From Xylanibacter ruminicola 23 (GTDB taxonomy: Bacteria; Bacteroidota; Bacteroidia; Bacteroidales; Bacteroidaceae), in assembly GCF_000025925.1 (NCBI RefSeq), contig NC_014033.1, positions 990,001 through 1,022,000 on the forward strand: a stretch of 32,000 nt of DNA, read 5' to 3'. Shown piece after piece: positions 5,649 through 18,296 of this stretch. A model generated the notes under the pieces. The model worked only from the letters and a program-made list of their open reading frames with translations. It did no database searches and had not been told where the DNA came from. Each line of letters starts with the position of its first letter. Position 1 is the first letter of the stretch. The position numbers and the translations under genes were made by a program.

Positions 5649-6333
5649 AAATCCATTTTCCAATTTTCCTTCAATAACCATTACCTTCTTTTTTCACAAC
5701 CACTCTTTTTTCTTCACAACCACCCAACCCTCCTTATCCTAAGGAGGGCCTCAAACCACTCCTAAATCCTCGCCAATCTTTGGCAAGGACTTAGTTGACT
5801 ACGAGGGAAAACCCTCTCCGTCAAAGTTTTGGTATGGCTCTCGAGCCTTTGTCCTCAGCTACGCTTCGGATTCGCCATATATTGCTTAATGGGGGCTCGC
5901 CCCCATACCCCGCACTTCGTGCTACATGTTTACTCACTACGTTCGAAAACATTCTTCGACAAGCGAAGCGAGCAGAGCTCGTAACCGCACTTCGTGCTTC
6001 ATGCTTTCTCGTGATAAATCACTCGAAAACATTCCGCACGAGGAGGTCTTTAGAGGAATGCAAATTCTTTGAATCGATATTGAGTCTCGGATTGCGGTAC
6101 GCAATCTGAGCAACGAAATGCGAAATGCTGTTTGAGCGTAGCGAGTTCATTGAGCGATTTGAAGAATTTGTGTTCCGGCCTCCGAGCTCAGGACGTTTTC
6201 GCACTCTTTCTTTTGTTTCGGTTTTCTTTCTGGTGACAGAAAGAAAATGAAAAGCCCTCCTTAGGATAAGGAGGGTTGGGTGGTTGTGAAAAAAGATGGT
6301 GGTTATTAAAAGAAGAATTGGAGGGTTGTGAAA

Positions 6334-6361
6334 TAAAAAAACCTCCTTAAGACTAAGGAGG
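6334..6361 (-). terminator. Rho-independent terminator for the permease gene, embedded in block B
   Basis: On the minus strand, CCTCCTTAgtctTAAGGAGG is followed by TTTTTTTT. It lies 24 nt downstream of the stop at 6385. Confidence 0.65.
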
Positions 6362-7662: not shown

Positions 7663-8765
7663 GCTTTGGGTATGTAGGGGATAATCAGGTCGAACTTAGC
7701 GCCCTGGGTGTATGTGGTATCGAGTGTGAGCGTGCCGCCCATGTGCTGGGCCACCATGCGGGCTATCGACAGACCGAGACCGGCACCCTGACTAAAGCTA
7801 TCCAGCTTGGTGAAACGCTCAAATATCAGCTCGCTCTTGTCGGCTGGAATACCGCAGCCGGTATCGGTTACGGCAAAATGCATCTTGTCGGCCTCGTGGT
7901 CCAGACTCAGTGTGATGCTGCCCTGCTTGGTAAACTTGGCGGCATTGTCTAACAGTTTGGCCAGGATGATGCCTACCAATCGTGGGTGGCACATCACCTT
8001 CTCCTCGGCGGGGATGTTACATTGGCTGTCTACCTTTACGCCCTTCTCTACAACCGTTGCGATAGCATCTACGGCACCTGCCATCGTCATCAGTGGCATG
8101 CACTCCTCGGCTGGTGGCAGCTCGGTGTCGCCCTCCATGTGCGATATCAGTATCAGGTCGTCAAGAATGTTTGTCAGCAGTCGGGTGTTCACCTGTATGC
8201 GCGTGCTGTAATCCTGTCGGTCCTGTTCGGGCAGCTCCATGCCGGGCATGGTAAGTATCTGCGTAAAACCGCTGATGGCGTTAAGTGGCGTGCGTATCTC
8301 GTGTGTCATGCTCTGCAGGAATGCCGTTTTGGCTTTCGATGCCGCCTCGGCACGGTCGCGCTCGATAGACAGCTGCTTGTTTTGTGCCACCACCACGTTA
8401 CGTTCGCGCTCCAGCTGTCGGTTTTTTATCTCCAGGGTGTGGCGCCAACGGTTGTTGGCCGACAGGAACAGCAGGAAACCGATAATGCCCAGAATCATCA
8501 CCACGCCACCCGATGTGAATCGTGATCGCTGCTGCAGCTGTTGGTTCTGTCGGCGCATCGCCTCCATCTCTTCGTGCGAAATCTGCTCCTTTATAGGCGC
8601 TTGTTGTATGTTGTTGGCAGCTGCCTTTTGGGGCACACTATAAGTCTGAGGTTGAACATTCGGTGCTTGATGTTCAAACTTACATGCCGATAAAGCGATG
8701 ATAATCAACAGCATAGCTATAGTAGCCGTTGTAGCCGTTAGTAATTTCTTAAGTAATTGTTCCAT
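7659..8765 (-). CDS. Membrane histidine kinase (HisKA + HATPase_c); no receiver domain and no adjacent response regulator
   Basis: H-box HEIRTPLNAISGF, N-box LLDNAAKFT, G-boxes DTGCGIP and GAGLGLSI, with two TM segments. The ORF-track start at 8789 is a TTG inside the -7 box, so I take the ATG at 8765 (MEQLLKK). The stop overlaps the permease ATG as ATGA. Confidence 0.85.
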   Translation of the reverse strand: MEQLLKKLLTATTATIAMLLIIIALSACKFEHQAPNVQPQTYSVPQKAAANNIQQAPIKEQISHEEMEAMRRQNQQLQQRSRFTSGGVVMILGIIGFLLFLSANNRWRHTLEIKNRQLERERNVVVAQNKQLSIERDRAEAASKAKTAFLQSMTHEIRTPLNAISGFTQILTMPGMELPEQDRQDYSTRIQVNTRLLTNILDDLILISHMEGDTELPPAEECMPLMTMAGAVDAIATVVEKGVKVDSQCNIPAEEKVMCHPRLVGIILAKLLDNAAKFTKQGSITLSLDHEADKMHFAVTDTGCGIPADKSELIFERFTKLDSFSQGAGLGLSIARMVAQHMGGTLTLDTTYTQGAKFDLIIPYIPKA

Positions 8766-8786
8766 TGGTCTGACTCTTTTCGAGTG

Positions 8787-8794
8787 CAAAGGTA
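8787..8794 (-). promoter_or_regulatory. -7 promoter box TACCTTTG (minus strand) for the kinase-permease operon
   Basis: The reverse complement of CAAAGGTA matches TAnnTTTG. It lies 21 nt upstream of the ATG at 8765. Confidence 0.45.
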
Positions 8795-8836
8795 CAAAAA
8801 AAAGATGGCACGAACAAATATCCGTGCCACTTTTTT
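8795..8836 (-). terminator. Bidirectional hairpin terminator immediately after the lysin-like gene
   Basis: Stem TGGCACG / CGTGCCA (8806-8812 / 8823-8829). A T-run follows on the minus strand (plus-strand A-run 8795-8803), and a T-run also follows on the plus strand (8831-8836). Confidence 0.7.
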
Positions 8837-9260
8837 AAGCGTTATTTTGGCTTAGATTCCAGCCTTGTAACATGGGGATGGGATTGATGTCGGTGGTGCC
8901 GTTTTCGTGGATGGCCATGGCTGCGGCGACGGTTATCCAGCGCAGTGGTTGCTCTGCTGGGTTGCCCAGGCACTCCAGGGCTCCGATACCCGATAGCTGT
9001 GCCACATGATCGATATACGCGCGGGTGTTGTTTTCGGCCACCGGTGCCCATTTATGGATGATGTCGCGGATGTTGTACAACCGGTATTTATGATAGTACG
9101 TGCGCGTAAGCAGTCTGAAGGCGGCGCGCCACCCCCACTCCATACTCTCAAACTGGCAGAAGTCGCCATCCTGTTGCTGTGCCTTCATGCCCTTCCACTT
9201 ATCGCCGCTAAGTCGGATGTTAAGTGGGTTGCAATTACGTAGTCCTCGTGGTGTGCTCAT
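8835..9260 (-). CDS. Phage-type cell-wall hydrolase-like protein (family often annotated 'structural protein P5')
   Basis: 141 aa. The N-terminal RNCNPLNIR motif resembles the NNPGNIR signature. No signal peptide. The ATG overlaps the stop of the upstream small membrane protein as ATGA. The family assignment is from memory of the motif, not from a search. Confidence 0.5.
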   Translation of the reverse strand: MSTPRGLRNCNPLNIRLSGDKWKGMKAQQQDGDFCQFESMEWGWRAAFRLLTRTYYHKYRLYNIRDIIHKWAPVAENNTRAYIDHVAQLSGIGALECLGNPAEQPLRWITVAAAMAIHENGTTDINPIPMLQGWNLSQNNA

Positions 9261-9499
9261 GATGGTAGTCGTTTGCTGATGATGTTTACATAGTGGTTAA
9301 GCCCGAAGATAGAGGCGGCAAACAGGAATGCCTGTGCCACGTAGAATAGCAGTCCGGTGGCCACATCGTTGATGCTCACCACCTGATACGTCACCAGCCC
9401 GATGCTGCTCACAATGAGCAGCACGGCACTGGCATACTGAGAGGTTTTAAAACTTGTGTTTTCCATGGTACTTAGATTTAGTAAGTGCTGCAATGACAT
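9257..9499 (-). CDS. Small two-TM membrane protein, holin-like by position
   Basis: 80 aa, or 69 aa if it starts at the ATG at 9466 (MENTSFK). Two hydrophobic helices (AVLLIVSSIGLVTYQVV and LLFYVAQAFLFAASIFGL) and a basic C-terminus (SKRLPS). Translationally coupled to the lysin-like gene. Confidence 0.45.
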   Translation of the reverse strand: MSLQHLLNLSTMENTSFKTSQYASAVLLIVSSIGLVTYQVVSINDVATGLLFYVAQAFLFAASIFGLNHYVNIISKRLPS

Positions 9500-9574
9500 A
9501 GATTACAACCCTGACGATTACTTTTACTGTTTTGTTCATAATTCTGTGTGTTTAATGAGTATCTGTTTACGTTA

Positions 9575-9582
9575 CAAAGATA
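9575..9582 (-). promoter_or_regulatory. -7 promoter box TATCTTTG (minus strand) for the membrane protein / lysin pair
   Basis: Plus-strand CAAAGATA is the reverse complement of TATCTTTG. It lies 75 nt upstream of the ATG at 9499. Confidence 0.4.
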
Positions 9583-9764
9583 CGAAAAATAATCGAAACG
9601 GCCAAGGGTTTTATGATAAATTTTTGTGCAAAAACTTTATTTAAAGTAACACTATAGTTTACATATAATAAAATATTGTTATCTATGTGTTTACAATGTT
9701 TATATTTTTGTTTCTTTTGTACATATTGATACACCAAACACTTGTACATATCAATATTTTTTAG

Positions 9765-9772
9765 TACCTTTG
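9765..9772 (+). promoter_or_regulatory. -7 promoter box TACCTTTG for the primase-helicase gene
   Basis: Matches TAnnTTTG and lies about 107 nt upstream of the ATG at 9880. It is preceded by direct repeats (TTGTACATAT x2) and an inverted repeat (ATATTGATA / TATCAATAT). Confidence 0.45.
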
Positions 9773-9879
9773 TTGCTGGTTGGGATTTAAGCCTGAGCAC
9801 GGGCCCCAGCAATCGCTGAAAAAACGTCTATGGCGATTGTAGTGCAAGACACAAAACTAAACCAAATGTAACAATCATT

Positions 9880-12648
9880 ATGACCCAAAACTTATTAGAG
9901 AAAATCTACGACCATTCAAATAATGGTCTAGATATCATTTTCGACGTATGCCCTCAGGCCGTCGATGCAGTAGCCAACAAGCGTAAGTTCCGTTTGCGTA
10001 GCAACGAGCACACCCCTTCGGCTTGTGTTTATCCGCCTACAGGAAACGTCGCCTACTGGCACGTAAAGGACTTTGGCATGGGCGAAGGCGAAGGTTACTT
10101 CTCGCCTATCGACCTGTACATGTGGGATCGCGGCTACACGCAAGCCCAGTTTGCAATAGCTGTTCAGGAGTTGGCCGAGCAGTATGGTGTACAGGACGAA
10201 CTGAAGCAGGGTGCTAACAAGCCCGAGGTGATTAAGCGCCCCGCCCTGCCCTGCGAAATTGGCAAGCCCGTTAGGGTTACCTATGGCGATGGTTTTACTG
10301 CTGCCGACCTGAGTGTTTGGGGACCTTGTGTAAAGGCCGAACACCTTATGGAATTGGGTTGGCGTACAGTGGCGGCCATTACCCGTACCAGCGATGGCAC
10401 CACTACCATTAAGAAACCCACCGACACCTATCCTATATATGCGCAGGTATGCATGTATCAGGATGACGATGGCAATATGCAGTCGTTTATCAAGGTTTAC
10501 GAACCCAAGAACTTCAACAAGTCGTTCCGTTTCAGTATCATCGGGCATAAGCCCCAGCACTATCTCTTCGGACTGGCAGCCCTGCGCCGCAAGTACGAGG
10601 AACGTGGCGAAGTTAAGCTCGACGAGGTGGTGATAGTTTCGGGTGGCAGCGATGCCGCAAACTGCTTAAGCTTGGGCTATCAGCCCGTATGGCTGAGCAG
10701 CGAGACCGAGACACTGCAGGAGTCCGATCTGAAGTTGCTAATGAAATACGCCAAGCGCGTGGTTAACATCCCCGATATCGATGATACCGGCATGAAGGCA
10801 GGTCGCCGACTGGCACTTAGCCTGCCCACAATTCATACCGCTTGGATGACTGCCAGCGACATGCACCTACTGCACGACAACCGTGGTCGCTATCGCAAGG
10901 ACCTGAAGGATTATATCCAGCTTAATCCCCATCGTGCTGCTATGCGACGCCTGATTAGTCGTGCCCAATGTGCACAGTATTGGATAGAGCGCCACGATAA
11001 AGATGGCAACATCTCCTATTCCATCTCAGCTGCCCGGCTTAACTATTATCTGGCACTTAACGGCTACTACACGTTGAAGGACGACGCGCACAAGGACCCC
11101 GTTTACATTCATATAGATGGTATTAAGGTTACGCGCGTGATGGCCAAAACGATTACCAACTTCCTGTTCACTCAGGCGCAGCGCGAGGGATTAGACGAGG
11201 CATTACAGAATCGACTGCTGCGCAGCCACGATTTGCCAACAAACAGCGTGAGCCATCTAATAGAGTGCGACAACCTCGACTTTAATAATTCCACACCCAC
11301 ATCACAGCGATTTTATTTCCGTAATGGTTGGGTTGAAGTAACGGGCAGTGACATCACACGGCATCCCTACTCTAATCTGTGCGACAGTTATGTGTGGGCC
11401 GATAATATCGTGGAGCATGATTATCGTAACATGCCGGCGATGTTCACGGTTGATAAGAATAGTGAGGGGCAGCTTGTGGTAGCTATTACCGAAAATCAAC
11501 CTAGCAAACTGTTTCAGTTTGTGATAAATGCCTCCAGGCTGTACTGGCGCAAGGTTGATGAGGGCCATCAATCACTTACCCTCCAGGAGCGCAACGACGA
11601 GAATCAATGCCTGCTGGCCAAGCTGGTTAATATTGGTTATCTGCTGCATGGCTATAAGTCGGAGTCGGCTGCATGGGCCACATTCTGTATGGACTCTACG
11701 ATGGGCGAAACCGAGGACGAGTGCAATGGGCGTAGCGGCAAGTCGTTCTATCTCAAGGCACTAGGCCAACTGCTTAACACTTTTAGCATCGAGGCGCGTG
11801 TAAAGTCGGTGGTCGAGAACCGATTCTTGTTTGATGGTGTGAGCGAGAAAACCGATCTTATCATTGTAGATGAGTGCCACAAGGCCCTGAACTTTGATTA
11901 TTTCTTTGGCAGGATCACCGGCACCTTCCGTGGCGAGGCCAAAGGCGATCACCCGTTCGAGATTCCATTCTCCAAGAGTCCTAAGTTTGCCTTTGGTACC
12001 AACTATACCATCCGCAAGAACGATCCCAGCACCATGGGACGTGTTTGGCCGCAGATATTCTCCGATTACTATCACGAGAAAACCAAGCAAAACGACTATC
12101 TGCAAACACGTAAGATTAGCGACGACTTTGGTTGCAACCTGATGGGCTCAGAATATCCCGAGAACGACTGGCAGGCCGATATCGCCTTCCTCATGCAGTG
12201 CGTAAAGCTTTACCTGTCGTTGCCCGCAGCTGAGCGCAAGATAATGCCACCAATGCAGCAGGTTGAGCGCCGTGCTGAGCGTGCCGCTGTGGGTAAGGAC
12301 TTCGAGGAGTGGGCCGAGGTGTATTTTGCGCCTGATGGCGGTAATCTCGATCGCGAAATTAAGCAAGACGAGATGTATGCCAACTTTAGTCGCGAGATAA
12401 CATATCGTGTATCCAAGAACGTGTTTACCAAGCGCCTCAAAGCCTACTGCGATTATGCCTCGCACATCCATTGCCTTAATCCCGCATCAATTACTGGTAA
12501 ACCTAAGGATGGCGAACGTATTCTGCGCCGCGCCGATGGAGTGCTTTCGTACTTTTACTATGTGCAGTCGACTGAGGAATATGAGGCTAAACTAGCCGAG
12601 AGAGCGCAGAGAGGATCCGAGTCCGAAGAGCAGGTCATCATATTCTAA
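9880..12648 (+). CDS. Primase-helicase-like replication protein (toprim-like domain + P4/D5/VirE-type P-loop NTPase)
   Basis: 922 aa. Toprim-like segment: VVIVSGGSDAAN ... NIPDIDDTGMKAGRRLA. Walker A is NGRSGKSF and Walker B is DLIIVDE, in the C-terminal half. The N-terminal EHTPSACVY resembles the TPSF core of the DnaG CHC2 zinc finger but lacks the cysteines. Confidence 0.75.
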   Translation: MTQNLLEKIYDHSNNGLDIIFDVCPQAVDAVANKRKFRLRSNEHTPSACVYPPTGNVAYWHVKDFGMGEGEGYFSPIDLYMWDRGYTQAQFAIAVQELAEQYGVQDELKQGANKPEVIKRPALPCEIGKPVRVTYGDGFTAADLSVWGPCVKAEHLMELGWRTVAAITRTSDGTTTIKKPTDTYPIYAQVCMYQDDDGNMQSFIKVYEPKNFNKSFRFSIIGHKPQHYLFGLAALRRKYEERGEVKLDEVVIVSGGSDAANCLSLGYQPVWLSSETETLQESDLKLLMKYAKRVVNIPDIDDTGMKAGRRLALSLPTIHTAWMTASDMHLLHDNRGRYRKDLKDYIQLNPHRAAMRRLISRAQCAQYWIERHDKDGNISYSISAARLNYYLALNGYYTLKDDAHKDPVYIHIDGIKVTRVMAKTITNFLFTQAQREGLDEALQNRLLRSHDLPTNSVSHLIECDNLDFNNSTPTSQRFYFRNGWVEVTGSDITRHPYSNLCDSYVWADNIVEHDYRNMPAMFTVDKNSEGQLVVAITENQPSKLFQFVINASRLYWRKVDEGHQSLTLQERNDENQCLLAKLVNIGYLLHGYKSESAAWATFCMDSTMGETEDECNGRSGKSFYLKALGQLLNTFSIEARVKSVVENRFLFDGVSEKTDLIIVDECHKALNFDYFFGRITGTFRGEAKGDHPFEIPFSKSPKFAFGTNYTIRKNDPSTMGRVWPQIFSDYYHEKTKQNDYLQTRKISDDFGCNLMGSEYPENDWQADIAFLMQCVKLYLSLPAAERKIMPPMQQVERRAERAAVGKDFEEWAEVYFAPDGGNLDREIKQDEMYANFSREITYRVSKNVFTKRLKAYCDYASHIHCLNPASITGKPKDGERILRRADGVLSYFYYVQSTEEYEAKLAERAQRGSESEEQVIIF

Positions 12649-12678
12649 CGGTACTGTTTTTGTGCTTTTTTGTTTCAG

Positions 12679-12706
12679 GCCTGCCCCGTTTGGGGCGGGC
12701 TTTTTT
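12679..12706 (+). terminator. Rho-independent terminator after the primase-helicase gene
   Basis: GCCTGCCCC-gttt-GGGGCGGGC forms a 9-bp stem with one G-U pair, followed by TTTTTT. Confidence 0.8.
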
Positions 12707-12710
12707 ATGG

Positions 12711-12935
12711 GGTGTTGCAAATATTGCAGTTGCAATAGCAAATATACTATCTTCATACTCATTTTTAGAATACTATATATACCCTGTTTTTTAGATTTTA
12801 ATTGCAACACCGCAACAGATAGTCATTCTAGAAATCTATCTATTTGTTAATCAGACGTATATGCAGTCGTCTTGGTATTGCAAATAGGTGTTGCAATTGT
12901 GTTGCAGATAAAAACCGCCGCATATTTGCAACACC
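12711..12935. promoter_or_regulatory. Iteron-like repeat field (candidate replication origin or operator array)
   Basis: The perfect 10-mer GGTGTTGCAA occurs at 12711 and 12887. Its reverse complement TTGCAACACC occurs at 12802 and 12926. Degenerate copies: ATTGCAG 12723, GTTGCAA 12729, GGTATTGCAA 12874, TGTGTTGCAG 12898. An AT-rich core lies at about 12736-12800. Small palindromes: AGATAG..CTATCT (12817-12841) and AGACG..CGTCT (12853-12871). Confidence 0.6.
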
Positions 12936-12985
12936 CAATCCCCCTTTTCAGCGCCTCTGCGCATCCCCTTTTACCCTAACACTAA

Positions 12986-13019
12986 CCCCGCTCTACTATC
13001 ATAGTAAAGCGGGGTTAGT
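12986..13019. repeat. 34-nt hairpin repeat R1 (CCCCGCTCTACTATCATAGTAAAGCGGGGTTAGT)
   Basis: Long imperfect palindrome, AACCCCGCTCTACTAT / ATAGTAAAGCGGGGTT. It lies 13 nt downstream of the toxin stop and is 32/34 identical to R2 in the same orientation. Confidence 0.8.
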
Positions 13020-13032
13020 ATTAGTGGGGATG

Positions 13033-13356
13033 TTATTTTATTCTTAAAATAAGCGTTTCGGGGTTCATCCTTACGTCCCAGATATCAACTACATGTACTG
13101 TGTCTGCTGCTTCGTCGTAGTAATGAATAAGTTTAAAACGGCGATTCATAAGATGTCTACGACGATACGATACCGATTCGTTGGCCAACAGTTCTTCGGG
13201 GGGATATGATTCGGGGAATAACTTTACACGCTCTTCAAAAGCGGCTATTTCTGTTTTCCAACGTAAGGCTGTTGATTTTCCGAATTCTAAGTATGCATAG
13301 TTAATGTGCTCATCAAGCAGAATCAGCACATTTTCGTGCCAGATTATCTTAGCCAT
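13033..13356 (-). CDS. Type II toxin, RelE/ParE family
   Basis: 107 aa from MAKIIWHENV. The C-terminal pattern FKLIHYYDEAADTVHVVDIWDVRMNP is typical of ParE/RelE toxins. It overlaps the upstream ORF by 13 nt. The ATG at 13404 was rejected because it gives a 61-nt overlap. Confidence 0.7.
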   Translation of the reverse strand: MAKIIWHENVLILLDEHINYAYLEFGKSTALRWKTEIAAFEERVKLFPESYPPEELLANESVSYRRRHLMNRRFKLIHYYDEAADTVHVVDIWDVRMNPETLILRIK

Positions 13357-13619
13357 GGGTATTTTTTCGAAAGGCGGTTCCACATCTGTTCCGACGTAGC
13401 CCATTTACTGGGATTGTTGCGATCCTCCCATGCCTGATTAATTCTGGCTTTAGCTTCGTCAATGTTCTTAGCTCCGAATACGGGCATGCTATCCCAATTC
13501 ATATCATCAATCTCGTCGTGTACATAATGCACACCGTCATGATGCTGCGTAGCTAATTCTGCAGCGGGTTCGCTGGCAGTTTGGCATTTAGTTTCTATGT
13601 CTTTTATGTCTTCACTCAT
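13344..13619 (-). CDS. Candidate cognate antitoxin (no family recognised)
   Basis: 91 aa with an acidic N-terminal half. The call rests on its position immediately upstream of, and overlapping, the ParE-like toxin. I recognise no RHH or HTH signature. Confidence 0.45.
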   Translation of the reverse strand: MSEDIKDIETKCQTASEPAAELATQHHDGVHYVHDEIDDMNWDSMPVFGAKNIDEAKARINQAWEDRNNPSKWATSEQMWNRLSKKYPWLR

Positions 13620-13650
13620 TTTTTTATGCTGTTGAGTTATCTTTCGTGTG

Positions 13651-13658
13651 CAAATATA
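13651..13658 (-). promoter_or_regulatory. -7 promoter box TATATTTG (minus strand) for the toxin-antitoxin pair
   Basis: Plus-strand CAAATATA. It lies 31 nt upstream of the ATG at 13619. Confidence 0.45.
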
Positions 13659-13721
13659 CGATTAAGTATGCAAACTACAAAATAAATCACGATTTTTTTT
13701 AGTTTCTGCTGAAACTAGCAC

Positions 13722-13755
13722 CCCCGCTCTACCATGATAGTAAAGCGGGGTTAGT
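13722..13755. repeat. 34-nt hairpin repeat R2 (CCCCGCTCTACCATGATAGTAAAGCGGGGTTAGT)
   Basis: 32/34 identical to R1 in direct orientation. It lies 54 nt downstream of the stop of the BIG2 lipoprotein gene. Confidence 0.8.
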
Positions 13756-13809
13756 GTGATTGGGCGGGGAGTCATCGCCTGGGGGCGATGGCTGGGTGAT
13801 TAGGGCACC

Positions 13810-15291
13810 TTAGGGGGTAAGCGTCCAGGTAAGGTTGTTGCTACCAGTACTTGAGCTGGCGAAATTCAGGTCAGTCAATCCCGTGCCATCCCATGTGTTG
13901 CTGGTTACGGTTACGCCGTTAATGGTCACAGCGCCAGTGCTGCCATGGTCATAATGTCCTTTTCCTATCGGCCAGGCAGCAAAGTGGTTTCTGGTAGCCT
14001 GAACCTGGGTGATGCCTGCGGTAATGGTGATACTGCCAAAGGTGCTACTTACTCCGCTGCCGATGCCAGCGCCATGACCATATGAAATGGCAATAATAGT
14101 GCCGCCACTGATGGTGATAGCGCCACATGAGGAGCCACTGAAACCGCTGCCGATGCCGGCACCTTCCCCACTATTGGCATTAACCGTGCCGCCACTGATG
14201 GTGATAGCGCCACATGAGGATTTAAAATCACCGCTGCCGATGCCGGCACCATTCATACTAGAACTGGCATTAACCGTGCCGCCACTGATGGTGATATGGC
14301 CGCATGAGGCGCCATCGTAACCGCTCCCAATGCCGGCTGCCAAATCACCACCGGTGGCAGTGAGAGTGCCTGTGCCATTAATGGTGAGCGTTTTGCCTAT
14401 GGGGCCTGCCTGGATGGCGGGATATTCCCTGTAGAAGCCCTTAACAGTGTTGGTGCCTGTAATGGTGATGGTGGCATTGCCATCACAGGTAAGGCCTGCC
14501 CAATTGGTGCTGGAGTTGTTACCGCCATTGATGGTAACATCTTTCAGCTCTACGCTGGCACCTGCGGCTATGCTAATCTTGTAATTGCCGGTCAGAGTGC
14601 CCGTAAGCACATCGCCATTCTGGGCTATGTAATCACCACTCAAAGCTGCAAGATTGATAGCTGGATCCACTGTCAGCGTATAGCTGACTGTCTTTGTGTT
14701 ATAAGTGTATTCGTCGCTGTCGGTAATGATGGCTGTAATAGTAGCTGTTCCAGCACCTTTTATTGTTACATCGCCGTTTGTGGCATTAACTTCAGCCACT
14801 GTTATATTATTCGAAGTGTATGATACCACTCCATCACCCACAATGGTTAGAGGGTTATTAAATGCAACATCGTTAATATACTTGGGTACGCTGGCAGTAG
14901 CAAAGCTGATGCTACCCTCCTTCTTGGTGACCGTTACTTCTACCGTGGTGGTGTTCTCGCTGAAGATTTCGGTGCGGTAGTAGTCGTCCTCGCCTTGGGC
15001 CTTGATGGTGATGCGGGCGGTGCCGGGGCTGACGGCGGTGATGAGGCCGGTGGCGTCGACGGTGGCTACGGCGGGGTTATCGGATGAGTAGAGCAGCACT
15101 ACATGAGCCTGTGTAGAAGCCTGTATGGGCTTGCTCTCACCTACTTTCAGCGTTAACTGGGCTCTTAGCACCTGCAAGGCAGGGGTAATGGGATTGTCGA
15201 GCATGTCGAACAGCTCGCCGCAACTGGTCATCACAAGGGGCAACGTGAGCATCATGCCCCACCCCAAAATCTGTCGGATAATACGTTTCAT
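13810..15291 (-). CDS. Surface lipoprotein with two BIG2-type Ig-like domains and C-terminal Gly-rich, Cys-containing beta-helix-like repeats
   Basis: 493 aa with lipoprotein signal LPLVMTSC. BIG2-like segments: YSSDNPAVATVDATGLITAVSPGTARITIKA and YTSNNITVAEVNATNGDVTIKGAGTATITA. There are 3-4 repeats of GAGIGSGxxxxSCGxITISGGTVNA. Confidence 0.7.
   Translation of the reverse strand: MKRIIRQILGWGMMLTLPLVMTSCGELFDMLDNPITPALQVLRAQLTLKVGESKPIQASTQAHVVLLYSSDNPAVATVDATGLITAVSPGTARITIKAQGEDDYYRTEIFSENTTTVEVTVTKKEGSISFATASVPKYINDVAFNNPLTIVGDGVVSYTSNNITVAEVNATNGDVTIKGAGTATITAIITDSDEYTYNTKTVSYTLTVDPAINLAALSGDYIAQNGDVLTGTLTGNYKISIAAGASVELKDVTINGGNNSSTNWAGLTCDGNATITITGTNTVKGFYREYPAIQAGPIGKTLTINGTGTLTATGGDLAAGIGSGYDGASCGHITISGGTVNASSSMNGAGIGSGDFKSSCGAITISGGTVNANSGEGAGIGSGFSGSSCGAITISGGTIIAISYGHGAGIGSGVSSTFGSITITAGITQVQATRNHFAAWPIGKGHYDHGSTGAVTINGVTVTSNTWDGTGLTDLNFASSSTGSNNLTWTLTP
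14054..14340. repeat. Intragenic tandem DNA repeats, period 87-90 bp
   Basis: An identical 35-mer, GTGCCGCCACTGATGGTGATAGCGCCACATGAGGA, occurs at 14099-14133 and 14186-14220. A third copy at 14276-14310 matches at about 31/35. CCGCTGCCGATGCC occurs at 14054, 14144 and 14231. Confidence 0.85.
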
Positions 15292-15335
15292 GTTGAAATT
15301 TAGTAATATCTTAATAAGTTAATTAATTTTGCCTG

Positions 15336-15343
15336 CAAATTTA
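15336..15343 (-). promoter_or_regulatory. -7 promoter box TAAATTTG (minus strand) for the BIG2 lipoprotein gene
   Basis: Plus-strand CAAATTTA. It lies 44 nt upstream of the ATG at 15291. Confidence 0.4.
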
Positions 15344-15407
15344 CGAAATAGTTGATAATCAGCCAAATAAAATCGGGAAAAAGTTTGGTAGTTTGGCAAT
15401 TTTTTTG

Positions 15408-15415
15408 TATCTTTG
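15408..15415 (+). promoter_or_regulatory. -7 promoter box TATCTTTG for the HU-like gene
   Basis: Matches TAnnTTTG and lies 46 nt upstream of the ATG at 15462. Confidence 0.5.
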
Positions 15416-15461
15416 CAATGGTAATAATACCACAAAACACATTTAATAAAAACACACAATT

Positions 15462-16100
15462 ATGGCAACAAACGAAATTAAGTTGGGCATCAACTTGCGC
15501 CAGAACAAGAATGCCCGCAACTCGGGGTACGGTAAGTACTATCCCGAAATCGACACGCAGACCACTCTCTCGCTGCGAGGCTTTGCCAAGCACATGAGTG
15601 ATCATGGTTCAATCTATTCGCTCGACATCATCGAGGGCGTGTTGAAGAAAATCACCCAGTGCCTGCCCGAACTCATCAGTCAGGGCGTGCCAGTACGCAT
15701 GGAGCCCCTGGGCACATTCCTGCCCACCTGCGATGTAGAGAAGCCCATTCTGAACATCGCGGCCATGGAGAATGCCGACCCTAACGAGGTGGTAAAGGGC
15801 GTGCACATCCGATTCCTGCCCTACGGTGTGGAGGACGACAACATCACCTCGCGCCGATTCAAGCAGGAGTTCTGTTCGCTCGAGTTCCGCAACATTGTGG
15901 ATACGGTTAAGGTTACCGTGGATGGCAAGGAGAAGAAGGTTACCACGCTGAAGCCTATCGCCACGGCCATAGCCGAGTATAAGTCGGGGCACGAGGCCAG
16001 CGCGCCATCAACCGGCGGTGGTAGTCAGCCATCAACCGGCGGCGGTAACACCGGTGGCAATACCGGTGGCGGCAGCAGCCATGAGCCTATCGGTGATTAA
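15462..16100 (+). CDS. Bacteroidales-type HU-like DNA-binding protein with a Gly/Thr/Ser-rich C-terminal tail
   Basis: 212 aa. The N-terminus (YGKYYPEIDTQTTLSLRGFAKHMSDHGSIYSLDIIEGVLKKITQCLPELISQG) resembles the HU_HIG-like family common in Bacteroidales accessory regions. The tail reads STGGGSQPSTGGGNTGGNTGGGSS. Confidence 0.65.
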   Translation: MATNEIKLGINLRQNKNARNSGYGKYYPEIDTQTTLSLRGFAKHMSDHGSIYSLDIIEGVLKKITQCLPELISQGVPVRMEPLGTFLPTCDVEKPILNIAAMENADPNEVVKGVHIRFLPYGVEDDNITSRRFKQEFCSLEFRNIVDTVKVTVDGKEKKVTTLKPIATAIAEYKSGHEASAPSTGGGSQPSTGGGNTGGNTGGGSSHEPIGD

Positions 16101-16140
16101 AAAAAAAGAAGGCCGGGAGCTTATATAGCTCTCGGCCTTC
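16099..16140 (-). terminator. Hairpin terminator between convergent HU-like and ppiD genes
   Basis: GAAGGCCGGGAGCT / AGCTCTCGGCCTTC forms a 14-bp stem with one G-U pair. The plus-strand A-run 16099-16107 gives a U-tract for the minus-strand ppiD transcript. Confidence 0.8.
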
Positions 16141-16160
16141 GGAAGTAAATACTTAAACAA

Positions 16161-18296
16161 TTAGAAGAACAGGTAGCGGTTGTCTACCACACCAGCCTTC
16201 TGATACAATTCCTGCATGAAGATGCGAGCAGCCTGAGTGGCCTGCATCTGGAGCTGAGCCTCGGTCTGAGCAGCGTCGAACTTAGCGCCGGCGCGGTTGC
16301 TCTTCTTAACTACCTTGAACAGGTAAGCACCACCGTTACCCTTAACCACGTGCTTGCTGAACTCGCCAGCCTTAGCAGCTGCAACGGCACCAGCCAGAGC
16401 GGGCTCTGAAGCACCTGTGGCCTGTACGAATACAGGAGCCGAGAATGTGATCTGATTAACCGCGTCGATGCGAGCACCCTTAGCCTTAGCTGCAGCCAGG
16501 TCGTTAACACCGGCCAGCTTAGCCTTGATCTGCTCGAACTTCTTATCGCGGATAACCTCGGCCTTAAGAACATCCTTCAGGCTGCTCATGTCGCGGTAGC
16601 CTACAGGGTTGATCTTAGTGAGGGCTACAACCAGCAGGTGATCGTTGTTACCGCACTCGTACAGTGGGCTAACCTCGCCTGGCTTAGCGTCGAAGATCCA
16701 CTTCATAGTCTCACGGGTAGAACGCAGGTTGGCTACGTTGTGCTCGTAGTTGAACAGATCCTGACGTGGAGTAACCTTGAAGCCGAACTTAGCAGCGTTC
16801 TTCTCCATATCCTCGATAGTCTTGTTCTCGCTTACAAACTGGCTGAACTTGTTGTAAGCCTCAGAGTATGTCTGCTTAGAGAAATCGATAGTGTGCTTGA
16901 TAACAGCTGCATCGTACTTGTCAACCATAGCCTTGCGAGCGGTAACCTGCAGGATGATGTTGCCCTGAGTAAACTCGAGGTTCTTAACATCGTTTACAGC
17001 CAGGTTGTTGATAGCTGCGAGGTAGGTCTTCGACTCCTCGTCGATAGAGCTGCTGTTCTCGTACATAGCTGATGTGAGCCACTGCTTGGTGCCTGGCTGA
17101 CCGTACTTCTGAGCCAGCTGCTCGAAATCAGCACCAGCCTTCAGAGCTGTGTAGATGCTGTCGGCAGTCTTCTTAGCGGCCTCTACGGTAGCACCGCCAA
17201 CCTGAATCTGGCGATACTCGATAGAGTCAGGAGCCTGAGTCTTGGCAATCAGCTTAACAACGTTGAGAGTGTTATCGAAAGCGGTCTCGAATACAGCTGA
17301 AGTCTGACCTACAGCCATTGAATCGAGCTTAGCAGCGATGTCTGATGGATAAGCGCGCTTGGTAGCAGCCATGCCAGTGTAGGCAAACTGCGACTGGGCC
17401 TTGCGAGCCACCTCGGCAGCGTTAGCACCGCTCTGCAGCTTCTGGGCTGCGTCGGTCATAGTCTTCATCAGCTCCTTGCGGTCGGCTGCTGAAGCTACTA
17501 CCTGGAAATCAACATACTTAATATCGCGGCTCTCAACGTCCTGCTTAAACATCTCCTTCTCCTCGTCGTACTTAGCCTTCAGATCCTTGTCGTCAACCTT
17601 TACATCGTTGTCGTTGATTGAAGAGTAAGCGATAGAAGCCAGCTGGATGTCGCTCTCGGTGTTCTGACCCTCGAAAGCCATCTTAGCTGAGATGGGGTTA
17701 GAGAGCAAGCAGTTGCTGAGCAGAGCCTGGTACTTCTGAGCCAGGGTGTTGGTGCGCAGCTGCTTCTCGATGAACTGCCAGTACTTGTAGATGGTCTGGT
17801 AGCTCTCAGCCAGCTGAGGATTTGAGCCTGCCTTCTTGTAATCGTCCAGGAACTTGGTGAGCATGGTAACGTCGAAACGACCAGTCTGCTGGTTTACGAA
17901 TGGGCTCTGCATCAACATGGGGTTTGTACCCTCCTTCATGATGTTCTGCAACTCCTCGTCGGTAACTGTCAAACCAAGCTTCTCTGCCTCGTTGGCAATG
18001 ATCTGCTCGTTAACGTACTGACTCCAAACCTGATCCTTAATCTGGTTCAGCTCCTCCTCAGAGAAGTTCTCGCGGTTCTGAGTAATCTTCAGAACGTCCT
18101 GATACTCATCAACCAGGGCCTGGAAGTCCTGAACATTGATTTTGTTTCCTAACACTTCGCCAATCTGCTGTCGCTGCTGGTTCTTGGTTGCTTCGCAAGA
18201 ACGGAAAGCTTCCTCAGCAATGAAGGCGAAAAGGCCTAAGCCGATAATGCAAACGAGGGCTACGCCTCTTTTACGGATTTTTCCTAATGCTGCCAT
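16161..18296 (-). CDS. ppiD: Periplasmic chaperone / peptidyl-prolyl isomerase PpiD-like
   Basis: 711 aa. The N-terminal anchor MAALGKIRKRGVALVCIIGLGLFAFI and the long SurA-like body are typical of Bacteroidetes PpiD. Synteny with CNNM/CBS and lptC supports the call. Confidence 0.75.
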   Translation of the reverse strand: MAALGKIRKRGVALVCIIGLGLFAFIAEEAFRSCEATKNQQRQQIGEVLGNKINVQDFQALVDEYQDVLKITQNRENFSEEELNQIKDQVWSQYVNEQIIANEAEKLGLTVTDEELQNIMKEGTNPMLMQSPFVNQQTGRFDVTMLTKFLDDYKKAGSNPQLAESYQTIYKYWQFIEKQLRTNTLAQKYQALLSNCLLSNPISAKMAFEGQNTESDIQLASIAYSSINDNDVKVDDKDLKAKYDEEKEMFKQDVESRDIKYVDFQVVASAADRKELMKTMTDAAQKLQSGANAAEVARKAQSQFAYTGMAATKRAYPSDIAAKLDSMAVGQTSAVFETAFDNTLNVVKLIAKTQAPDSIEYRQIQVGGATVEAAKKTADSIYTALKAGADFEQLAQKYGQPGTKQWLTSAMYENSSSIDEESKTYLAAINNLAVNDVKNLEFTQGNIILQVTARKAMVDKYDAAVIKHTIDFSKQTYSEAYNKFSQFVSENKTIEDMEKNAAKFGFKVTPRQDLFNYEHNVANLRSTRETMKWIFDAKPGEVSPLYECGNNDHLLVVALTKINPVGYRDMSSLKDVLKAEVIRDKKFEQIKAKLAGVNDLAAAKAKGARIDAVNQITFSAPVFVQATGASEPALAGAVAAAKAGEFSKHVVKGNGGAYLFKVVKKSNRAGAKFDAAQTEAQLQMQATQAARIFMQELYQKAGVVDNRYLFF

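Follow-up and report, generated by a model that had tools for sequence, protein, structure and literature searches.

A composite chromosomal cassette with a predicted phage-type rep-ori core beside ppiD in Xylanibacter ruminicola 23

Between a histidine kinase gene and ppiD, the chromosome of Xylanibacter (Prevotella) ruminicola 23 carries a block of about 7.3 kb in which six unlike components lie together: a small membrane protein gene coupled to a lysin gene, a divergently transcribed primase-helicase, a field of short repeats (iterons), a ParE/RelE-like toxin pair, a BIG2 surface lipoprotein and an HU-like protein of the HU-HIG family. Is this a minimal selfish replicon or phage satellite, as an earlier note on this DNA proposed, a domesticated system, the remnant of a prophage or a chance gathering of genes? 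The window analysed here is the stretch of 32,000 nucleotides (contig NC_014033.1, 990,001 to 1,022,000) to which all coordinates refer (Table 1). All six components are present where that note had placed them, and all seven block proteins match X. ruminicola 23 entries exactly (e.g. ADE81679). On balance, we lean towards reading the block as a resident, integrase-less, satellite-like or domesticated cassette: a composite island with a phage-derived replication–origin (rep-ori) core.

We fetched the PpiD neighbourhoods from 80 species-representative genomes and mapped all window proteins onto them. No part of the block lies beside PpiD in 70 of the 80 related species, and the content that follows PpiD is unrelated and highly variable; the PpiD-adjacent site is a chromosomal plasticity hot-spot. 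In Prevotella sp. MA2016 (L005; PpiD 94% identical), the histidine kinase and PpiD genes are adjacent, ∼400 bp apart, and the DNA alignment jumps from window position 8550 to 16161. The edges of the block, at about 8800 and 16100, coincide with this empty site. Parts of the block occur at the same place in five close species (D31d, SIG140, RUG13469, Ga6B6 and P6B1). These comparisons show an accessory block with genuine edges, in agreement with the earlier note. The two strong bidirectional terminators that were said to border it both fold strongly (z-scores of -6 to -7), but the right-hand hairpin is the terminator of the convergent PpiD gene; it belongs to the chromosomal frame and not to the island, because its positional equivalent is present in the empty-site genome. 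The left-hand hairpin sits between the histidine kinase promoter and the lysin stop codon and folds at -19.4 and -16 kcal/mol on the two strands, with z about -6.

The replication protein of the block is a fusion of primase and helicase (Pri-Rep), and its gene is divergent from that of the small membrane protein (tm80). The 922-aa product gave no Pfam match. TIGR01391 (dnaG) was matched at E 1.3e-4, together with phrog_239 and phrog_28855, and a sequence-profile search against the PDB returned only a non-significant DnaG Toprim match. When the AlphaFold model (predicted local distance difference test score, pLDDT, 76.6) was searched with Foldseek, DnaG cores (5vaz, 1eqn, 2au3) and T7 gp4 were recovered at E of about 1e-6 to 1e-5; for the helicase part, the superfamily 3 (SF3) helicases of monkeypox virus (MPXV E5), vaccinia virus (D5) and African swine fever virus (ASFV PrimPol) were recovered at E of about 1e-6. 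The protein has a DnaG-like catalytic-core fold, with an invariant Toprim DxD (D299-x-D301), and a D5-like SF3 helicase that pairs a D5/E5-like fold with invariant Walker A (GRSGKS, 617–622) and Walker B (DE, 664–665) motifs. Two further DnaG hallmarks, the conserved Toprim Glu and the Cys/His zinc-binding domain, are missing: the N-terminus is zinc-ribbon-like, with an EKTPS-like signature present and the Cys/His zinc ligands absent.

This family is abundant in rumen metagenomes, with more than 548 confirmed matches. We collected 92 cellular primase loci from metagenome and genome contigs, which fall into 56 clusters at 90% identity. A first viral scan with window-specific peptides gave no match; only a family-profile scan of 2.9 million IMG/VR contigs reached phages, with full-length homologues at 35–38% identity in 326 viral contig stretches. 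Cultured Bacteroidota phages also carry the protein at full length, at 30–38% identity overall. Named examples are gp6 of Bacteroides phage BT-TP2 (36% identity), whose genome has a capsid gene and an annotated terminase, and gp27 of Polaribacter phage Leef_1 (‘DNA primase/TOPRIM’, 30% identity), whose genome has capsid, tail and integrase genes; in both cases, the homologue covers 98–99% of the primase-helicase. Judging by these homologues, the replication protein is of phage ancestry. A plasmid origin was also considered and is unsupported, as the plasmid collection gave only partial helicase-domain matches (Salinibacter and Persicobacter plasmids).

Cellular and viral copies differ at fixed positions. 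Residues 254–258 of the Toprim motif (window about 10639–10653) read SGERD in all 79 viral homologues; the cellular homologues have SGGSD or SGCSD in 75 of 75 loci with the motif and in 118 of 120 database matches. Phages have DD at Walker B where cells have DE; the DxD, the other acidic residues and the helicase motifs are retained. The SGGSD/SGCSD signature sets the cassettes of chromosomes apart as a fixed lineage of their own, which may have been exapted.

Directly downstream of the primase terminator lies the origin-like iteron field. The motif GGTGTTGCAAATA occurs there in six copies with up to two mismatches and is found nowhere else in the 32 kb. Forward iterons (12711–12745) are followed by an AT-rich stretch of ∼55 nt (12746–12798), inverted iterons (12799–12815), a spacer, three forward iterons (12874–12910) and one inverted iteron (12923–12935). 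Both the field and its AT-rich core are conserved in close relatives, and in L092, a relative at 65% identity, the layout recurs with GTTGCAAA units and a shared TATATACCCTG core. The arrangement is general: an 8-mer repeated at least four times within 450 nt 3′ of the primase was found in 56 of 76 cellular loci and in 0 of 76 coding controls, and with 400-nt windows a repeat field was seen downstream in 46 of 65 loci compared with 12 of 65 upstream. Across the family the commonest unit is GTGTAACA, with lineage-specific variants besides. We rejected an exact GTTGCAA motif as a family-wide feature: it is confined to the window clade and L092, and the remaining lineages use variants of their own. 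Repeats of the family's motif class (TGTCACAA, TGTAACAA, GGTTGCAA, GTTACGAA) also lie 3′ of the primase in phage contigs and in BT-TP2, again with an AT-rich tract.

The C-terminal domain of the primase-helicase (residues about 791–922) co-varies with the iteron type. Two alleles illustrate this. The L093 protein is 76–85% identical to the window protein over residues 1–360 and 44–57% identical over residues 361–922, and its iterons are of the GTGTAACA type; the L003 protein has a C-terminal half that is 98–100% identical to that of the window, and its iterons are the same. Iteron type therefore tracks the C-terminal half. A Pri/Rep protein with iterons immediately 3′ of rep that flank an AT-rich region is also the arrangement of the phage-inducible chromosomal islands (PICIs), which include the Staphylococcus aureus pathogenicity islands (SaPIs). 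On this sequence evidence, the primase-helicase and the iteron field together are a phage-type rep-ori module with a predicted origin.

The module has a regular neighbour. The 212-aa HU-HIG protein is a member of its Pfam family, has a glycine-rich C-terminus and scores below the cut-off of TIGR01201; a -7 promoter box precedes its gene at about 15409–15416. Of the 27 cellular loci with 3 kb of sequence on either side of the primase, profile searches showed 25 to have an HU-HIG gene no more than 3 kb away; the median distance downstream is 578 nt, and the two genes mostly share a strand. In 19 of 26 dereplicated lineages, an HU-HIG gene lies within 5 kb downstream of the primase. None of the 82 viral loci has one near the primase homologue. 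Independent contigs with Pfam annotation show the same order, namely an unknown protein of 370–520 aa, the primase, a toxin-antitoxin pair (in some) and HU-HIG, flanked by housekeeping genes (gyrA, sppA, tamB, tex) and often neighboured by restriction-modification, GmrSD or toxin-antitoxin genes. The study that defined the HU-HIG clade reported hardly any conserved linkage to other genes; its authors suggested that these proteins act against invasive DNA (Burroughs et al. 2017, PMC5499826). The block protein resembles that clade of the HU/IHF superfamily in its PF18291 match and in the Gly-rich C-terminal tail of one HU-HIG subclade, and differs from the clade as published (PMC5499826) in its tight linkage to a phage-type rep-ori module.

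Upstream of the primase, the loci are more varied. In 27 of 65 loci, a gene of the family F22 (370–406 aa, no Pfam match) lies just before the primase in the same orientation (∼1.1 kb; e.g. L141 4023–5144); in other loci it is replaced by unrelated small proteins (F45, F53, F148, F207). F22 is absent from the window, where the tm80–lysin pair lies upstream of the primase instead. In L121, L165 and L148, the primase is preceded by a pair of genes encoding ∼750 and ∼333 aa (F204/F205). MmeI-like type IIG restriction-modification genes (F146) and HigB/HigA-like pairs (F203/F202, F112) recur beside or inside the cassette; together with F204/F205, these neighbours suggest a defence-island setting.

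The tm80–lysin pair resembles a phage lysis cassette. The lysin (UniRef name ‘Structural protein P5’) has homologues in 742 phage records and is 42–44% identical to annotated Bacteroides and Phocaeicola phage endolysins, where a ‘holin family protein’ gene lies directly upstream and overlaps; by this homology the lysin conforms to the endolysin of a holin–endolysin cassette. The ATGA overlap of tm80 and lysin was read directly and indicates translational coupling. No Pfam, PHROG or NCBIfam match was found for tm80, which falls in no recognised holin family. A lysin immediately follows the tm80 homologue in all 20 loci with enough downstream sequence to be tested, and this lysin is one of two unrelated types, phrog_873-like (8 cases) or Peptidase_M15_3 (12 cases). 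Because it always precedes one or other of these unrelated lysins, tm80 behaves like a holin; we describe it as holin-like on the grounds of position, size, helices and obligatory pairing. A weak tm80 homologue (39% identity, E 9e-5) occurs in the crAss-like phage cr273_1 (L254 1788–4119), where it is followed by an open reading frame (ORF) with an N-terminal transmembrane segment and a coiled coil, which is spanin-like. In a separate observation, in-frame TAG codons were seen in ORFs of this phage when read with table 11, a hint that the stop codon is recoded.

The earlier note likened the block to a minimal selfish replicon, but the 7.3 kb do not form one coherent replicon: the toxin-antitoxin pair is nested, the BIG2 lipoprotein is variable and the rep-ori module is swapped within a conserved frame. 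The toxin-antitoxin cassette is a 736-nt insertion placed precisely at a palindromic hairpin, with one copy of the hairpin on either side. Hairpin copy 1 forms the left junction, with the ancestral left flank and a cassette-specific right flank, and copy 2 forms the right junction and carries the ancestral right flank. In the single-hairpin alleles (L088 7020–7140 and L004 13215–13335), the left flank of copy 1 is joined to the right flank of copy 2; therefore, the toxin-antitoxin pair is a nested insertion at the hairpin. The pair is a candidate ParE/RelE system. The PF05016 match of the toxin is below the cut-off, its likely true start is Met17 at 13356, public sources give the resulting 107-aa form the name ParE, and toxin and 91-aa partner are conserved together in L001, L003, L089 and L126; the partner itself has no Pfam, NCBIfam or PHROG match.

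The hairpin may be a recombination target. We rejected the idea that it is a dispersed repetitive extragenic palindromic (REP) element, since it occurs only at this locus within the ruminicola clade, and on inspection it does not match the GTTRRRY core expected of an attC-like site. In L093, a different small gene is joined to the hairpin that flanks the toxin-antitoxin pair of the window, and other loci have an IS200/RAYT-like HUH gene (F145, judged from the HLH motif only) in the gap between primase and HU.

The lipoprotein gene is also variable. Its protein repeats are encoded by tandem repeats of 87–90 nt; it is 63% identical to the D31d copy, with a ratio of non-synonymous to synonymous substitution rates (dN/dS) of 0.28, and only remnants are found in L002, L004 and L088. 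From these comparisons, the BIG2 lipoprotein is strain-variable cargo.

The core itself is also exchanged. In Ga6B6 (PpiD 99% identical) and SIG140 (L004 is one locus of this type), the rep-ori module is replaced by a BT4734-like archaeo-eukaryotic primase (AEP) with a PriCT-2/VapE-like helicase, which has its own GGTGCAG iterons around an AT-rich palindrome. HU and tm80–lysin stay orthologous at the locus while the rep-ori between them is exchanged between sister species. Recombination also reaches into the gene, as L093 has a primase allele of 62% identity that is recombinant within the gene. In X. ruminicola D31d (L001 15859–21959), an extra insertion between the toxin-antitoxin pair and the primase encodes DnaB_C-like, DUF3127 (phage ssDNA-binding-like) and zinc-ribbon proteins, a superfamily 1 (SF1) helicase that resembles the helicase domain of Mokosh MkoA, and two unknown proteins.

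The block genes are intact and under purifying selection of the same order as the core flanks: dN/dS is 0.10–0.21 for the primase, 0.10–0.14 for the lysin and 0.07–0.29 for HU, compared with 0.06–0.17 for the flanks. In synonymous divergence (dS), lysin, tm80 and HU are on a par with the core genes beside them. The block genes therefore point to long residence rather than to a recently mobile satellite. In one species whose PpiD is only 78% identical, an HU-HIG gene and an orthologous primase (64%) likewise lie next to PpiD. By these comparisons the block is composite, not one coherent replicon, and old at the locus; it is no recent mobile element.

How, then, does the cassette relate to known satellites? 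Satellites with self-loading Pri-Rep/ori replicons are described for Firmicutes and Proteobacteria, and we know of no phage satellites described for Bacteroidota. In P4, which has integrase, capsid-size and transactivation genes, the alpha protein unites in one polypeptide a primase, an SF3 helicase and a C-terminal domain for origin binding, which reads repeated short motifs. The likeness of the block protein to alpha is drawn from established knowledge of P4, as no match to P4 sequences turned up and no search aimed at one was made; the primase motif of alpha, EGYATA, keeps the Toprim Glu, where the window family has Ser. The SaPI origin comprises 6–12 iterons immediately downstream of rep, with an AT-rich centre and opposed iterons on both sides, and in SaPI5 pri and rep are fused and the C-terminal domain reads the iterons (PMC9371898). 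The block resembles SaPIs and PICIs in having a primase fused or adjacent to a self-loading helicase-initiator and a predicted origin directly after rep. SaPI specificity resides in the C-terminal part of Rep (PMC9371898), which corresponds to the half that the iteron type follows here. Unlike them, the block has no integrase, att sites or packaging or capsid-redirection module, and no Stl-type repressor was identified in it; its DnaG-like primase with a D5-like SF3 helicase, its HU-HIG partner, its lysis pair and its host phylum, Bacteroidota, also set it apart from SaPIs.

The siphophages BT-TP2 and Leef_1 share with the block the full-length homologous protein and GTTAC/TGTNACA-class repeats with an AT-rich tract 3′ of the gene; unlike the block, they carry virion genes, no HU-HIG, and SGERD with a DD Walker B. 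A further comparison is with the Bacteroidales neighbourhoods of VirE/BT4734-like primase, HU-like protein and cell-wall hydrolase. The earlier note was right that such neighbourhoods recur, and the VirE-type version of the frame stands at the same locus in Ga6B6. It is annotated in many Bacteroidales genomes, and its replication protein is non-homologous to the Toprim/SF3 fusion of the window. Gene lists of B. thetaiotaomicron place a DUF3987 gene next to an amidase gene (PMC10434189). We found no functional description of the cassette, in either its Toprim/SF3 or its VirE type, in the literature searched.

In the reading that we prefer, the core would be the fused Pri-Rep, with its DnaG-like primase, D5-like SF3 helicase and C-terminal specificity domain, acting on a cognate 3′ origin. 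The cassette would also include the HU-HIG gene, as in most cellular relatives, and in a subset the holin-like/endolysin pair. Pri-Rep would bind the iterons through its C-terminal half, melt the AT-rich stretch and load itself as helicase, as SaPI Rep and P4 alpha do, and HU-HIG would probably be an architectural or silencing partner at the DNA of the iteron field. New variants of the cassette would arise when homologous exchange swaps the rep-ori within a conserved frame, without site-specific excision, and the cassette would collect cargo such as the ParE pair at the hairpin and the variable BIG2 lipoprotein. By analogy, a conflict-related role seems most likely, either as a helper-responsive satellite-like element or as a domesticated anti-phage or abortive-lysis module.

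Several observations weigh against this reading. The argument for a conflict-related role is drawn from neighbourhood and analogy, and PADLOC gave no match inside the block. The position of the canonical Toprim Glu (aligned to DnaG ‘VEGYFD’) is Ser254 throughout the family; a Glu two residues further on is present in all viral copies and is Gly or Cys in cellular copies, so the primase half may be inactive in the cassette. The confidence of the structural model is low around the helicase P-loop, and we infer both the firing of the origin and the binding of the protein to the iterons. The tm80–lysin pair lies near the primase in a minority of cases (4 of the 27 loci with both flanks, about 19 of 91 overall). 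Finally, HU may belong to the host frame and not to the module, because it stays at the locus when the rep-ori is swapped.

One competing explanation, in our view an improbable one, is that the block is a true helper-dependent satellite, which excises through a helper or host recombinase, replicates, is packaged in helper capsids and exits by its own lysis pair. In its favour, Pri-Rep and ori are arranged as in SaPI/PICI and P4 replicons, and Bacteroidota siphophages whose origins use the same motif class have homologous replication proteins. A related species has an empty site, and the cassette is widespread and patchy across lineages and loci. The means of movement and packaging are missing, as the earlier note had already seen: domain and PHROG searches found no integrase, terminase, capsid or conjugation gene in any ORF of the 32-kb window, and no excisionase or recombinase domain in the ORFs of block or window. 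The virion structural, terminase and integrase genes of a prophage are likewise absent from the 32 kb. Direct, att-like repeats were not found at the block ends, and there is no tRNA gene in the window to serve as a target. Neither PHROG nor Pfam revealed a head or packaging function, apart from the lysin, which matches a virion-lysin domain; the integrase with flanking att direct repeats and the packaging module (terS, ppi, cpm, capsid homologues) of PICIs, and any capsid-redirecting gene, are thus lacking here. None of 87 metagenome loci gave a circular contig, and no viral relative of the primase above 38% identity was present among the 80 best of the 326 from IMG/VR, the sample on which closeness was judged. 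The flank-like dS of lysin, tm80 and HU, the reach of the locus association to species with 78% PpiD identity and the persistence of the frame while its inner module is replaced also argue against a satellite. Of the selfish replicon or satellite proposed earlier, the phage-type rep-ori and the lysis-like pair stand, and end repeats, circular contigs and close viral relatives were not found. The same note had left the choice between a domesticated system and a helper-dependent satellite; a domesticated system is at least as likely, and recent mobility is disfavoured by the flank-like dS.

It could also be held that there is no functional unit at all, and that unrelated genes accumulate at an insertion-tolerant intergenic site. 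For the toxin-antitoxin pair and BIG2 it can be shown that they are cargo or were inserted independently, tm80–lysin lies beside the primase in a minority of loci, and almost every species has different content downstream of PpiD. We consider this explanation just as improbable as the satellite, given that the linkage of primase, iterons and HU is far above chance (25 of 27 loci, median gap 578 nt, mostly same strand), that tm80 and lysin are coupled in all testable cases and that the frame of tm80–lysin, rep-ori and HU is kept across sister species despite the change of rep type. An inert remnant of one or more decayed prophages in a recombination hot-spot, with no present function, would account for replication and lysis genes of phage ancestry without structural genes, for the variability of the locus between species and for the additional phage-like replication fragments of D31d (DnaB_C, DUF3127), but is very unlikely: all genes are intact with core-like dN/dS (0.07–0.29), the order of upstream gene, primase, iterons and HU-HIG recurs at unrelated chromosomal sites in at least 26 primase lineages below 90% identity, HU-HIG is never near the phage homologues, the cellular clade has a fixed motif difference, and the iterons and AT-rich core are conserved.

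The preferred reading, of a resident cassette with a phage-derived core, can be carried a step further, although we regard this step as doubtful. Rumen Prevotellaceae, and probably Bacteroidales, would have exapted phage initiators as resident phage-responsive modules without integrase, distinguished by the Toprim change, their own iterons and an HU-HIG partner. Such modules might amplify in situ, or might titrate or jam the replication of related phages, sometimes with abortive lysis by a holin/lysin pair. If this is true, the HU-HIG expansion would gain its first concrete genetic partner.

The phage-type rep-ori module is common in rumen Prevotellaceae, with at least 56 lineages below 90% identity among the metagenome matches (>548), and it is stripped of integrase and packaging functions and tightly linked to HU-HIG. 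Its experimental handles are the defined iterons, a C-terminal half that would determine specificity, an active-site difference diagnostic of the clade and a natural empty-site strain. Bacteroidota are the dominant phylum in gut and rumen communities. Should the cassette prove to replicate or to interfere with phage, it would be relevant to phage–host dynamics, to gene amplification and to the design of replicons for poorly tractable Prevotella.

Table 1. Coordinates of the features of the ppiD-adjacent block in the 32-kb window
Feature	Position	Strand	Description
Left-border hairpin	8805..8830		Bidirectional intrinsic terminator; 11-pair stem, A-run/T-run on the two sides
Endolysin-like peptidoglycan hydrolase (lysin)	8835..9260	-	141 aa; phrog_873 endolysin E 4e-39; PDB 7q47_A E 9e-12
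Holin-like tm80	9257..9499	-	80 aa; two hydrophobic helices; ATGA overlap with lysin
Divergent promoter region	9500..9879		Between tm80 and primase
Primase-helicase (Pri-Rep fusion)	9880..12648	+	922 aa; predicted DnaG-like Toprim core and D5-like SF3 helicase
Primase intrinsic terminator	12677..12702	+	11 pairs, 8 G-C, then T-run; -22.2 kcal/mol
Origin-like iteron field	12711..12935		GGTGTTGCAAATA family iterons, directly after primase terminator
Hairpin copy 1	12976..13028		Palindrome with 24-nt arms; -32.4 kcal/mol, z -7.7
ParE/RelE-like toxin	13033..13404	-	PF05016 21 bits (cut-off 23), E 5e-4; phrog_2455
Candidate antitoxin	13344..13619	-	91 aa; upstream of toxin, overlapping; co-conserved
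Hairpin copy 2	13722..13764		88% identical to copy 1 over 43 nt
Surface lipoprotein (BIG2)	13810..15291	-	Signal peptide with Cys24; two Big_2 domains; Beta_helix_3 repeats
HU-HIG protein	15462..16100	+	212 aa; PF18291 36.5 bits (cut-off 26.2), E 5.9e-9
Right-border hairpin	16108..16141		Terminator of convergent PpiD gene; -23.7 and -28 kcal/mol

The region between tm80 and the primase contains two sequences which we take, from the known Bacteroides promoter consensus, to be Bacteroidetes -7 boxes (TAnnTTTG): one at 9766–9773 on the plus strand for the primase and one at 9572–9580 on the minus strand for tm80 and lysin. Just upstream of the primase box, the 15-nt sequence TTGTACATATYRATA is present twice, at 9717–9731 and 9742–9756, spaced by 25 nt; the ends of the repeats are partly inverted relative to each other. 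These repeats look like a candidate operator for a regulator.

On both sides, the block is enclosed by housekeeping genes. Those on the left encode a GHMP kinase, an epimerase, an NMT1-like protein, a SpoIIE-type sensor phosphatase, a permease and the histidine kinase; those on the right encode PpiD, a CNNM/CorC protein, LptC, SecA and FeoB. Rfam gave no match in 8000–17000 at E up to 0.1. GC content falls only slightly in intergenic sequence. Two further short segments of the window, 1914–2568 and 5659–6342, differ from the closest relatives; these are variable intergenic sequences outside the island. They contain short repeated pieces (5792–5854 and 6254–6321) and tandem repeats of 19–20 nt (5685–5723 and 6279–6316).

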